This document shows positions 7,546 to 49,421 of a stretch of DNA of 64,000 nt, piece by piece. Made by a program: the position numbers and the translations under genes. The stretch is taken from contig CP084167.1 in NCBI GenBank assembly GCA_021513715.1, forward strand, positions 1,984,001 through 2,048,000. Direction: 5' to 3'. The DNA comes from Candidatus Heimdallarchaeum endolithica (lineage in GTDB: Archaea > Asgardarchaeota > Heimdallarchaeia > Heimdallarchaeales > Heimdallarchaeaceae). Each line of letters starts with the position of its first letter. Position 1 is the stretch's first letter. A model generated the notes under the pieces. It made no database searches. It was not told the origin of the DNA and saw nothing but the letters and a program-made list of their open reading frames with translations.

Positions 7546-7641
7546 TGGAGCCAGGACGGGGATTTGAACCCCGGAGGCATAAGCCAGCGGTTATCTCTCT
7601 GACGTTTCGAGACCGCCTCCGTACCACTAGGATATCCTGGC
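7546..7641 (-). tRNA. tRNA-Ser(CGA) with 13-nt intron at 37/38 (7593-7605)
   Basis: Acceptor GCCAGGA/TCCTGGC, anticodon stem GCGGT/ACCGC, variable arm, TTCAAAT T-loop, CCA encoded. Confidence 0.9.
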
Positions 7642-7833: not shown

Positions 7834-8448
7834 TTACAGCCTAATAAAAGTTCTACTCTTGCACTCGGGACAGCCATTTATTGTACACTCATCACAAAGA
7901 AAATTTCCACATTTTGAACATTTTTTTATTGCTTTATTTTTTCTACACTTTACACATGTTTTGATCATAAATCGTTTCCACAGTTTGTATATTAAATAAA
8001 ACAGTGAAAATGCTAATGCAATTCCTAAAATAACCTTTAGTATTATTAACAGTACATTCCCAGCAGTAGGCCCTATATGATCTGGAGTCGCATCTAACGT
8101 TATTTTTAGAATTTTCACGTTTTTATACTCAAAATAACTTACGGAACCATTTGTTTGAGTAACATACCATGAAATTGAAGGCTTTGTTTCTCCTACCTTC
8201 ATACCTACTAATTCACTAACAAAATTATAATTTGTAATATCTTCGTCAATTGCTACTTCTAGGGGGCTATTTTCAGTATATACAGTTTTTAATCTACCAT
8301 CTATATAACGCTCACAAGCAACTTCTACACGATCGCCCCACTCAACACCTAGTTTTTTGTCATAAGCAGTTACATTGATAATTGATGATAGGAATAAAAT
8401 AGTAAAAATAAATGTAAATGTTAGAATTCTGGTTCTAGTTTTACTCAT
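7834..8448 (-). CDS. Single-pass membrane protein: signal peptide, degenerate FKBP-like domain, TM helix, C-terminal 8-Cys zinc finger
   Basis: Hydrophobic N-terminus, LVGMKVGETK, TM helix, CVKC-x8-CSKC-x4-CDEC-x4-CPEC. Paralog of the next gene. Confidence 0.7.
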   Translation of the reverse strand: MSKTRTRILTFTFIFTILFLSSIINVTAYDKKLGVEWGDRVEVACERYIDGRLKTVYTENSPLEVAIDEDITNYNFVSELVGMKVGETKPSISWYVTQTNGSVSYFEYKNVKILKITLDATPDHIGPTAGNVLLIILKVILGIALAFSLFYLIYKLWKRFMIKTCVKCRKNKAIKKCSKCGNFLCDECTINGCPECKSRTFIRL

Positions 8449-8492
8449 CGGTTTTTTTTTATTAGGCTAATTTAAAAGAATTTCTAAGAGGT

Positions 8493-9119
8493 CTATTTTT
8501 TAAATCGAACTAAGGTTCTTCCATTACAACTTGGACAACCATTTTGGAAACAGTGAATACAATAATTTTTTCCACATTTACTACATTTACCTATTGCTTT
8601 CTTCTTACAGATAGAACATTTTTTGAAAAACAATTTTGGATATACTTTAACACCACCATAAATTAAAATTAAGGATCCACCAATACTAGATAATACTATA
8701 ATAAATTTAAAGAAGTCAAAATTTCCCGATGGAGGAGAAGTTGTTGAAGAAACACCTTGAACATCATAAACCTCAACATTCTGATAATGTAACAATTTCC
8801 CTGCTAAATAACCATAATCTGGATCTGAAGCATCAAAACCTTCTTCTGGTGGTATATCAAAATTTCTTTTTTCACCGATCTTCATCCCAAGCATCCTATT
8901 GTACAATCCAATAGGTTTAATATTATTTTCATTAAACAATGTTTTTTTTGGTATCGAACTATCATAATATTCGATTGTCTTTCCATCAACAAGCAAATGA
9001 TACCCAAAAGATACTAAATCGTTATCCTGAAGTCCATTATCATAACCTTGAATTGGTATTGCAACAATAGCAGAAAAGAACAGAATAGCAAATACAAAGA
9101 GTTTATTTAGATATCTCAT
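8493..9119 (-). CDS. Single-pass membrane protein: signal peptide, FKBP-type PPIase-like domain, TM helix, C-terminal 8-Cys zinc finger
   Basis: GYHLLVDGKTI...MLGMKIGEKRNFDIPPEEGF...LAGKLLHY is FKBP-like; TM helix; CSIC-x7-CSKC-x4-CIHC-x4-CPSC. Confidence 0.75.
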   Translation of the reverse strand: MRYLNKLFVFAILFFSAIVAIPIQGYDNGLQDNDLVSFGYHLLVDGKTIEYYDSSIPKKTLFNENNIKPIGLYNRMLGMKIGEKRNFDIPPEEGFDASDPDYGYLAGKLLHYQNVEVYDVQGVSSTTSPPSGNFDFFKFIIVLSSIGGSLILIYGGVKVYPKLFFKKCSICKKKAIGKCSKCGKNYCIHCFQNGCPSCNGRTLVRFKK

Positions 9120-9232
9120 TGTTTTTCAAAAATATAATTAAATTAAAAAGATATCGAAAATGGTTTATTGCTAATAAAATTTTAACTATTTGTAAATTCA
9201 AATATTTATTCTAAAAAGACATGAAATAATTT

Positions 9233-9572
9233 TTACGTAAAAAATATTTTTTCAACAAAGAAGATATTAGAGAGAGGTCAAAAATGCATTTCAAAAACAA
9301 AAACACAAAATAACATAATAAAAGCGTCACAATTTTTCAGAGATATTTATATACTAAAATCACTTATATAAAGTGTCTTGAGCTATATGCTTTAAGACGT
9401 AGGTTTCAGTCCTACGACAGCCGGACTTCCCTATGGGAGTGATGAGTGCCGGGATCAGGAGATGAACCAGTTAGAGAACTTATTGAGACTGTGTCTCTTG
9501 TTCTCTTAAACCAATCCTCACAATCAGATTGTGTTGCTTGGTTGGGTAGAGTCCTGAAGAAATTACGTAAAA
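9233..9572 (+). mobile_element. Putative non-autonomous cassette bounded by TTACGTAAAA direct repeats, carrying a promoter and an omegaRNA-like RNA
   Basis: TTACGTAAAA at 9233-9242 and 9563-9572. The same core flanks the TnpB element at 47524 and 49349. Confidence 0.5.
9346..9353 (+). promoter_or_regulatory. Putative TATA box (TTTATATA) for the structured RNA
   Basis: About 22 nt upstream of the first hairpin. A second candidate, TTATATAAA, lies at 9364-9372. Confidence 0.45.
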
Positions 9573-9590
9573 TTTCAACTCATGATGCTT
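9375..9590 (+). ncRNA. Structured ncRNA, candidate stand-alone omegaRNA (scaffold plus 3' guide)
   Basis: Locally GC-richer intergenic island with stems GTCTTGAGC/GCTTTAAGAC, CGTAGG/CCTACG, CCGG-ACTTCC/GGGAGT-CCGG, and TCAGGA/TCCTGA enclosing AGAGAAC/GTTCTCT and AACCAA/TTGGTT arms; ends in GAAGAAATTACGTAAA. Confidence 0.65.
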
Positions 9591-9692
9591 TAAGGAGACC
9601 TAAACAACAAGGTTTTTTAACTTGCAGAACACCCATCTAAAAATCTTATAAATATAAAATGTAAAAAAAAAATAAAAATGAAAGAAAGGAAA

Positions 9693-47438: not shown

Positions 47439-47523
47439 CTATATTATCATCCCTTTTTATTTGAAAAATATATTTATTGATTCAGAATTATTTACATTAT
47501 AAACTAATTTATGATTTACTTTT

Positions 47524-47770
47524 TTACGTAAAGTTTTTCGCACTCTGTCTTGCAAGAGAGGAAACAAGTAAAAGTTTAATCTCTTGAACTCAACCAAGCC
47601 ATACAATGCTATGAAGGGGTTGAGACAGACATCATACACGAAGCGTGGGAATCATAAAGAAGAAAAGAAAGTTTTTCTTTCTTTTCTTCACTCCACGAGA
47701 GACAAAAAAGAAAGAGAGAAAACTAACTCTAACACAAGAGGAGAGAATTAGTCCTTTCCTTTTTTGTCTA
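47524..47770 (-). ncRNA. Putative omegaRNA scaffold downstream of tnpB
   Basis: Stems AGACAAAAAAG/CTTTTTTGTCT, CGTGG/CCACG with a 13-bp GAAGAAAAGAAAG hairpin, and TTCGTG/TGCGAA enclosing TCTGTCT/AGACAGA, CTCAACC/GGTTGAG and CAAGAGA/TCTCTTG; ends at the element boundary. Confidence 0.7.
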
Positions 47771-49219
47771 CTGGGGCTGCAACCAATGGCTGAGTCCTAG
47801 GCAAACAGTGAAATGAGTAGAACTGTATCGCTGACCAGTGAGGTAATCAGTAATAGTTGTTCCTCGAGGACGAAAAAGAGCACCAAGGAACTTAAGAGCG
47901 ATATTTATTGCTCCTGTGAGGTCAGAGTGGAAAGTGTAGTTGCAAGAGGGGCAATGGACTAAACCTCTAACGGGACGGATAACTTTCCTCCCACAACGAG
48001 CACAGTGAGAAGATGTTCCTCTTTCCTCCACAGTTAATATTCGGTGAGGTTCAAAACCTCGAAGTATCAATGCCCGACGGAGAAGAGTAAGAACAAGGTA
48101 AAAATTCCATTGATGAAGTTTCCTGCGAAAATTACGAGTACTTTTACCTTTTCCTTTCTCCTCACGAACATGTTTAGGGTAACCTACAACGACGAAAAGG
48201 TCATACACTTGTGCATAAGTTTCTATCGTATGCACAACTTCACTTATAAATTGGTGAATATAGGCTCGTTTAACGTTTTTATATCTTCTTCGGAGAAGAC
48301 CGAGAAAACGGTAAAGTTGGTGTTTTTTACCCGACTGGTCGTTTAAAGCTGCTTTCCTCTGAAGACGGGAAAGTTTGAGTTTATATCTATGATTGACTCT
48401 ATTCCACTGTTTGGTATACCAGAACTTTATCTCTTTGTTTGTTAATTTCTTTTTAGGGGTCAGTAACACTCCTGCAGCAGGAATGTTTATCCCTAGATCT
48501 ATTCCCAGCACAGCTGGAGGAAGAGAAGAAGAATTATCTTCTTTAGTAGGATAAAAGGAAGAAGGAAGAACTCTTAGTTGGAAATACACCCACCACTCAC
48601 GTGTAGAACGTTTATATCTTAGTTCTAAACTTTTTATTCTTCCTTTCTTTAACTCTTTCTGGTGGAAAGTGCTCATCTCTAAAGGTAACCATAGTTTCTG
48701 GTGGTAAGGGGTGTTTCTTTTCCACGTATCCAACGAGTCTCTTATCCCCACCCACCAACGAGTGAGAGTGTTATTCTTCTCTTTAGGTAAATGAACGAGA
48801 ATGAACCTCTTTGCATTAATTAGTTGTCTTCTCGCTCTCTTTATTGGAGGACGAGTAGGACTGGGTCTATACCCTTGCTCATATAGTTGAACAGCTATAT
48901 CTCTACATTCTTGGAATTCATTGTGAGAACAATAAGGGAACATTTTCTTAAGATCGTGAGGAACAGTCTTTCTTCTCTCTTTTTCTTTAACTTTTGAAGT
49001 CGTTAGCGTCAGTTCATCTAATTTTCCTCTATGTACTCTTATTTTCCCTTTTTTAGTTTTAGCACATATTTTTCTTCTATTGTGGTGTATTATTCTCACA
49101 TACTTTTCTATTATCCTCGTGTCTCTCCCCGTTATTCTCCTTAACCTTTCCTTCTTCCTCGTCGTCAATACCTCCTTCTTTATTCTCACTTTCAAGGTTT
49201 TGACGACGTCCTCCACCAT
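47768..49219 (-). CDS. tnpB: TnpB/Cas12f-like RNA-guided endonuclease with rearranged RuvC-II
   Basis: N-terminal KTLKVRI, RuvC-I LGIDLG, VVVGYP in place of VxEDL, VEERGTS, CARC/CPSC zinc ribbon, RuvC-III HSDLTGAINI. Confidence 0.88.
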   Translation of the reverse strand: MVEDVVKTLKVRIKKEVLTTRKKERLRRITGRDTRIIEKYVRIIHHNRRKICAKTKKGKIRVHRGKLDELTLTTSKVKEKERRKTVPHDLKKMFPYCSHNEFQECRDIAVQLYEQGYRPSPTRPPIKRARRQLINAKRFILVHLPKEKNNTLTRWWVGIRDSLDTWKRNTPYHQKLWLPLEMSTFHQKELKKGRIKSLELRYKRSTREWWVYFQLRVLPSSFYPTKEDNSSSLPPAVLGIDLGINIPAAGVLLTPKKKLTNKEIKFWYTKQWNRVNHRYKLKLSRLQRKAALNDQSGKKHQLYRFLGLLRRRYKNVKRAYIHQFISEVVHTIETYAQVYDLFVVVGYPKHVREEKGKGKSTRNFRRKLHQWNFYLVLTLLRRALILRGFEPHRILTVEERGTSSHCARCGRKVIRPVRGLVHCPSCNYTFHSDLTGAINIALKFLGALFRPRGTTITDYLTGQRYSSTHFTVCLGLSHWLQPQ

Positions 49220-49421
49220 CTTTCTCTTTTCTCCTTCTTTCCTCTTTTTTGTTTCTTCTTCTCTTTTTATTTTACTTTTTTTCCCTATAAAAACCCCTCT
49301 CCTTCCTCTCTTCTCTTTTTCCTCTCCTTCTTCCTCAACAACTGTAAATTACGTAAAAAATAGAAGCATGTTAGCCCAAAAGATAATAAAATTAATATAA
49401 ATTAGAGTACATGTCTAAAAT

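Follow-up and report, generated by a model that had tools for sequence, protein, structure and literature searches.

Protein-less elements that accompany an RNA-guided nuclease are known from the fungus Spizellomyces punctatus, where the ghost Spu-1 elements belong to Fanzor1 (Bao and Jurka, 2013, PMC3627910; Saito et al., 2023, PMC10432273) and the ghost RNAs work with their nuclease (PMC10432273). Stand-alone omegaRNAs acting in trans were reported by Altae-Tran et al., as cited in the passage on them in PMC10691335. Other described systems with comparable features are the IS607 family (Chen et al., 2018, PMC6188088), including CboIStron (10.1101/2023.11.20.567912), and the Cas1H-Asgard aCas1-TnpB loci (PMC10691335). 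The homing role of TnpB and the pseudoknot of its RNA scaffold have been published as well.

The window analyzed here is a stretch of 64,000 nucleotides from the closed archaeal genome of Candidatus Heimdallarchaeum endolithica (3,326,783 bp, 30.8% G + C). It contains a protein-less cassette that is located between two minus-strand genes according to the gene calls of the window, which agrees with the intergenic placement in a first-pass annotation of this DNA. The following features were assigned to the cassette.

9221-9583, + strand: protein-less cassette, true ends from AT to AT, diverged copy of a family termed M1
9221-9222, + strand: left junction AT (2-bp core or duplication), preceded by the target C at 9220
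9221-9243, + strand: left end, imperfect inverted repeat with the palindromic TTACGTAA (9233-9240), from the comparison of ends
9244-9325, + strand: AT-rich, poorly conserved spacer (58% identity to the other copies)
9326-9373, + strand: putative archaeal promoter region with a TATA box (9346-9353)
9374-9583, + strand: predicted omegaRNA scaffold of 210 nt, from folding and covariance model
9374-9398, + strand: 5' hairpin, relic of the last tnpB codons (LSQWL motif), whose counterpart in related Heimdall elements is the 3' end of tnpB
9442-9447, + strand: 5' strand of the pseudoknot, ATGAGT, pairing with 9578-9583 (99.4% of cells paired in 27 RNAs)
9559-9583, + strand: right end, inverted repeat with TTACGTAA (9563-9570), 3' strand of the pseudoknot, ACTCAT (9578-9583), and AT core (9582-9583)
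9584-9603, + strand: predicted guide, host flank matching the empty insertion site, with a length taken from TnpB biology

The cassette had been regarded as a single stand-alone locus. Instead, 18 full M1 copies of 363-381 bp, including that of the window, could be identified in the genome together with fragments, all of the full copies being short and non-coding with terminal inverted repeats. The copies of the main group share a mean identity of 94%, and such high identity among M1 copies could be the result of a recent spread and not of selection. The window copy is a member of a diverged subgroup, with 88% identity to the other copies in the RNA and 58% in the spacer. Homology begins at the AT after the target C and stops at CAT, and the DNA outside differs for every copy; likewise, each of the 24 right ends in the genome is followed by unlike DNA. 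In H. aukensis, a species of the same genus with 11 M1 matches, the ortholog of the cassette site is empty: the flanks are joined with a single junction word, which reads CACG and not CATG and is followed by the same flank as found from 9584 onwards. This is the empty site between the flanking genes that the first-pass annotation had suggested looking for in relatives. Furthermore, 3 of the 18 copies split reading frames (324-441 codons). The cassette is almost certainly a mobile ghost element.

One M1 copy (genome positions 925509-925883) lies directly upstream of the sole Y1 transposase of the genome, which is part of an IS605 element, and in H. aukensis one copy abuts the left end of a family-D element (L193). 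In the window itself, two tandem minus-strand genes are located at 7834-9119, of which the one adjoining the cassette matches FKBP and a B-box-like zinc finger. Two tRNA genes of about 100 nt (2824-2924 and 7546-7641) were each called by just one of two programs and are probably intron-containing or long-armed.

As ends of the cassette, boxes with the sequence TTACGTAAAA had been named. These are present at 9233 and 9563, but the real ends lie 12-13 nt further out, at the AT of 9221-9222 and of 9582-9583. In the window, TTACGTAA was observed four times compared to 0.63 expected occurrences; two of these lie in the cassette as the inner part of the imperfect inverted repeats and the other two bound a tnpB element. 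Both M1 ends, read from the outside inwards, consist of ATG, about ten bases and then TTACGTAA, with 16 of 21 positions matching between the two ends of a typical copy, and joining the right end to the left end results in a symmetric site around AT. At the left end of the window copy, the gap between CATG and the palindrome is 9 nt instead of 10, and due to this missing base the copy may no longer move.

The M1 left ends are preceded by CAT in 19 of 19 cases, and a C at position -1 was found for all 34 left flanks or ends of the families M1, B and C. The first base of the right flanks is a G in 28 and an A in 12 of 44 cases. The target is C-AT-G/A, and the search for a wider symmetry revealed nothing past (C)C-AT-G; CAT is the predicted TAM. 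For family B, a filled and an empty site could be compared (L098): the empty site reads CATA, the left junction of the filled site CAT followed by G and the right junction CAT followed by A, i.e., the base after AT is not duplicated. Since GAT is read at some left junctions, the C is not duplicated either. Based on this pair and on the GAT junctions, AT is the word found at both junctions, compatible with a duplication of 2 bp as well as with the core of a recombination site. A duplication of 8 bp comprising TTACGTAA was ruled out by the empty site, which lacks it, and a 4-bp duplication of CATG by the fourth base, which is unequal between the junctions in 5 of 18 copies as well as in the family-B pair. 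A dif/Xer-like site was rejected because of its unsuitable spacing and because XerA is single and unlinked.

With Spu-1, M1 and family B have in common the combination of nuclease-only elements bounded by inverted repeats and protein-less omegaRNA ghosts, a junction dinucleotide with a conserved upstream base, a rearranged RuvC-II and the lack of a detectable transposase, and in both cases the repeats and RNAs of ghost and parent are similar yet distinct. However, M1 is archaeal, its dinucleotide is AT in C-AT-G instead of TA in CA-TA, and its scaffold comprises 210 nt with a K-turn-like helix compared to about 75 nt in Spu-1. The likeness is probably one of architecture, because the best structural matches of the family-B TnpB are Cas12f/TnpB and no Fanzor1 chain is found among the PDB sequence matches listed or among the best 50 fold matches. 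Like the stand-alone omegaRNAs of OMEGA systems, which are used in trans according to the corresponding passage of PMC10691335, M1 is a mobilized omegaRNA without effector or transposase, with effector loci elsewhere in the genome. The RNA of the M1 locus shares homology with omegaRNAs linked to nucleases, the locus itself encodes neither an effector nor a transposase, and a variable predicted guide lies just past the right end; unlike the stand-alone omegaRNAs described in that passage, the locus has true inverted repeats, an AT core and a putative promoter at the 5' end of the RNA.

IS607 elements share with M1 and family B a 2-bp word that occurs at each end and once in the target, a pseudoknot that ends the scaffold on this word, and TnpB. 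The core is AT in M1 and GG in IS607, terminal inverted repeats are present in M1 and absent from IS607, and the IS607 transposase TnpA, a MerR-type serine transposase with an N-terminal HTH, is missing from the M1 and B elements and from the genome. IS200/IS605 elements have asymmetric hairpin ends, a Y1 transposase and no duplicated junction word, whereas the M1 ends are symmetric. The closest relatives of the family-B TnpB come from Thorarchaeota and one other Heimdall family (31-36% identity; the tree backbone is unresolved). These relatives, those of the Thorarchaeota among them, are arranged head to head with a large gene (about 1550 aa) whose similarity to Cas1 is weak (E 0.003, probability 11%), and the loci carry the published GTTCACTCA motif of the aCas1-TnpB groups, which resembles the TTCAACTCA end found here. 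The large gene recurs in 14 loci; in two Thorarchaeota loci (L159 and L162), a TnpB of about 550 aa and the large gene, there of about 1530 aa, are oriented head to head, and the GTTCACTCA motif and then a tRNA-like sequence come next. An aCas1 gene of the Cas1H-Asgard type was found neither beside tnpB in about 45 Heimdallarchaeaceae loci nor in the genome, which has only an ordinary CRISPR cas1 and no homolog of the large gene. Judged from the sequence by their defining features, M1 is outside the IS607, IS605 and aCas1 groups. Ghost elements are already known elsewhere, but M1 has unusual inverted ends, and no mover was found for it.

The proposed multi-stem RNA of about 200 nt was recovered at 9374-9583 (z -2.5). 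The predicted scaffold is composed of hairpins at 9374-9398 and 9399-9415, a stem at 9421-9452, two arms at 9473-9506 and 9509-9543, and a terminal hairpin; a K-turn-like helix, predicted between 9457-9468 and 9544-9555, is kept in the families compared. Rfam gave no match for the cassette RNA at both thresholds, which argues against a known housekeeping RNA, the outcome that the first-pass annotation had regarded as fatal to its reading. A covariance model was built from 11 aligned M1 copies alone, without tnpB RNAs. With this model, the tnpB RNA of the window (47511-47706) scores 39 bits at E 1.3e-9, and among the tnpB RNAs from other Heimdall genera that were matched the best reaches 50 bits (E 7e-13), whereas no match was obtained for the Thorarchaeota tnpB loci. 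The claimed similarity to the RNA downstream of tnpB was thereby confirmed.

A motif described as an ATGA bulge is indeed present, but instead of a bulge it forms the 5' side of a pseudoknot, the other strand of which is the terminal ACTCAT. RNAalifold pairs the two strands unprompted, and the helix covaries with TnpB-associated RNAs, a G-C pair being replaced by U-A in family B (ATGATT/AATCAT). A pseudoknot at the scaffold end is of the type known for TnpB RNAs. In a structure-free alignment of M1, 6 pairs have two-sided changes compared to 1.5 in shuffles, kinship being uncontrolled, and pair counts on the model-fitted alignment are circular for every helix but the anchored pseudoknot. As the 3' end is the end of both the DNA element and the RNA, its conservation is expected either way. 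A swapped arm order was not borne out: the arms are colinear, and the conserved loop (ACTGTGT / ATTGTAT) lies in the first junction arm of the cassette, of the tnpB RNA of the window and of the relatives. The shared 9-mer does exist (9536-9544, reverse complement of 47591-47599), but is probably due to chance, because among the 11 aligned copies it is present in the window copy only.

The first hairpin, as a remnant of the last tnpB codons, shows that M1 descends by deletion from a tnpB element. The TATA box that had been noted in the cassette was found 28 nt ahead of this hairpin, a spacing that is equal in 15 of the 18 M1 copies. A second TATA-like box (9363-9372) occurs in the window copy only. 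The model search also recovered protein-less ghosts from four further Heimdall genomes. Here, the same 5' hairpin directly adjoins a tnpB promoter, with 26-28 nt from the TATA box to the hairpin; the deletion in these ghosts appears to span the region from the tnpB transcription start to the first RNA hairpin. Promoter-fused ghosts of other Heimdall genera were recorded at L203, L206, L208, L217, L221, L224, L226, and L229. In addition, a second ghost family, M2, was detected with seven copies of about 355 bp, a left flank TCAT and a right end GAT, whose RNA matches the unrelated TnpB family D. The M2 copies are located at the following genome positions.

238536-238875: M2 copy
396405-396759: M2 copy
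699974-700327: M2 copy
2204201-2204555: M2 copy
2657961-2658315: M2 copy
2845703-2846057: M2 copy
2939793-2940144: M2 copy

Together with the ghosts of other genera, M2 indicates that ghost formation with a promoter-to-RNA fusion is recurrent.

A potential nuclease partner is encoded in the window as well.

47511-49369, - strand: family-B TnpB element, from AT to AT, 1859 bp, same end type, without transposase, from the comparison of ends and loci
47768-49219, - strand: tnpB, 483 aa, probable trans-acting partner
47511-47790, - strand: family-B omegaRNA, 5' limit approximate (model match 47511-47706)

In the family-B TnpB, RuvC-I and RuvC-III are intact (D241 and D433), and RuvC-II is rearranged (VVVGYP) with an invariant E399 before the zinc finger. 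For this rearranged layout, activity has been demonstrated with Fanzors and TnpB2, and by its sequence the protein is not of the catalytically dead type. About 12 near-full copies of family B are present in the genome and the family occurs in both Heimdallarchaeum species; its ends also carry TTACGTAA, and a left end of the M1 type was found on one truncated family-B element. The site orthologous to 47511/49369 in H. aukensis lacks the element. That site (L190:324-345) is not clean and contains 14 additional bases, which may have been left behind by excision or repair.

The families B and C represent the effectors of this clade in the genome. The M1 RNA scores 40-50 bits against the RNAs of TnpBs from other genera and 33-41 bits against family B, and the family-C RNA has a pseudoknot mismatch. 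None of the loci examined from the genome, from H. aukensis and from the metagenomes contained a tnpB gene with an RNA of the M1 type. Due to this and to the higher scores against other genera, the pairing of M1 with the family-B TnpB is a putative one. The family-B TnpB would be the likeliest partner of the M1 RNA, and the native partner of M1 may be extinct in this genome.

Taken together, M1 is a non-autonomous ghost of an Asgard TnpB element that would probably borrow TnpB in trans to cut the emptied site; a live guide function with the family-B TnpB is favored on balance. M1 originated from a tnpB element that lost nearly the whole gene, and it spreads in one piece, delimited by its imperfect inverted repeats, with CAT(G) as target. 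Transcription from the TATA promoter would run into the 3' flank, so that each copy would make an omegaRNA with its own 3' flank as guide. The TnpB of a full-length element, most likely of family B, would bind this RNA in trans, and both would cut the element-free site (TAM CAT and flank) after excision or on the sister chromosome, whereupon repair from the occupied copy would restore the element. With a borrowed TnpB, the ghost would keep the retention or homing benefit without a protein of its own. Its movement would depend on a recombinase or transposase that is likewise supplied in trans.

An unlikely alternative is that M1 is an orphaned MITE, which still jumps or recently jumped via its ends, and that the scaffold is a relic without a compatible nuclease in the genome. 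This would be consistent with the lack of a tnpB with M1-type RNA in the genome and in the H. aukensis and metagenome loci, with the differences of the family-B RNA in sequence and in the pseudoknot pair, and with the family-C mismatch. However, the scaffold is far better conserved than the spacer and is kept in two species at 88% ANI, and the TATA-to-RNA spacing equals that of the ghosts from other genera, although the M1 promoter region is unlike that of family B.

The predicted guides bear on a further alternative, a domesticated array of trans-acting guides serving the host in defense or gene regulation, as had been considered for the single cassette. For the window guide, the genome contains no other CAT-adjacent match of at least 10 nt, and for all M1 guides no second CAT-adjacent match of 12 nt was found. 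Each guide, an ordinary flank, would therefore target only its own empty site, and this fits the published retention or homing role and not a service to the host. The start of the window guide (9584-9594) shares 10 bases with the first hairpin of the cassette (9388-9397), probably by chance, because most other copies differ there at one base. An own promoter, many unlike guides and a conserved scaffold speak for such an array, but the site is empty in H. aukensis, M1 copies interrupt genes, the family-B TnpB is not of the dead type, and neither a TnpB relative nor a cassette end (the right end was searched) was found in viral contigs, which makes domestication very improbable. A housekeeping archaeal ncRNA (SRP, RNase P or box C/D type) with a merely coincidental likeness to the tnpB RNA can practically be dismissed despite the K-turn-like motif and the TATA box, given the missing Rfam match, the multiple mobile copies, the absence at the orthologous site and a homology to tnpB RNAs for which E values as low as 7e-13 were obtained.

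Thus, the multiple copies, the empty sister site and the homology with covariation support the first-pass view of an omegaRNA-like, MITE-like and possibly trans-acting derivative, whereas the term "undescribed system" was too strong, as stand-alone omegaRNAs working in trans (PMC10691335) and Spu-1 ghosts (PMC10432273) have been published.

Concerning the mobilizing enzyme, the ends follow a common layout, from AT and G via five or six bases to a T run, in the families B, C, D, and E as well as in related elements throughout the Heimdallarchaeaceae. The elements of these families carry tnpB alone, and D and E are barely related to B. In about 80 genome loci and the inspected metagenome loci, neither a recurring gene within the elements nor a transposase in any element was found. 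IS630 and ISL2/Harbinger-type transposases are absent from the genome, and the other IS types present have ends unlike those of M1. Y1 was rejected as mover, since the M1 ends are symmetric and the single Y1 element goes with an unrelated TnpB. A genome scan with an end-motif matrix was too unspecific. Two solo serine recombinases, in which the DNA-binding part is C-terminal, are encoded in the genome.

L023:1201-1950, - strand: serine recombinase, resolvase domain and short recombinase-type DNA-binding part, kept like a housekeeping gene
L022:1213-1935, - strand: serine recombinase, resolvase domain and short recombinase-type DNA-binding part, kept like a housekeeping gene

Homologs are found in 28 of 30 Heimdallarchaeaceae genomes and in none of 16 other genomes of the order, and one of the two has about 75% identity across the family. 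Serine chemistry would be suited because of the 2-bp core inside a symmetric joint. Against this idea, related genomes share genes anyway and are not independent, and no recombinase copy was found inside element ends. In three genomes of another Heimdall family (G034, G032, and G038; L406-L425), AT-ended right ends occur together with MerR-type IS607 transposases, and the solo serine recombinase was not found with this query; up to 32 such right ends were counted, many on short decayed elements. The pair is a tentative candidate for the mover, suggested by sequence and distribution. It is conceivable, if rather doubtful, that the Heimdallarchaeaceae share a host-supplied transposition, in which the serine recombinase pair acts on symmetric AT-core ends that at least three unrelated TnpB clades and promoter-fused ghosts have adopted.

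The role of stand-alone omegaRNAs has been stated as unknown (PMC10691335), and so is the enzyme that moves transposase-less elements like Spu-1 (PMC10432273). M1 offers a compact prokaryotic test case near the root of the eukaryotes: its ends are defined, the TAM can be predicted (CAT, or TCAT in family D), empty alleles exist in the sister genome, promoter-fused ghosts have arisen repeatedly, and there is a recombinase as candidate for the mover. It also provides an uncharacterized clade of RNA-guided nucleases, for which a short TAM is predicted, and an RNA family that Rfam does not contain. If host-supplied transposition holds true, nuclease, guide and recombinase would be distributed over three loci, and archaea would have an equivalent of the fungal arrangement of Spu-1 and its ghosts, which lacks a transposase.
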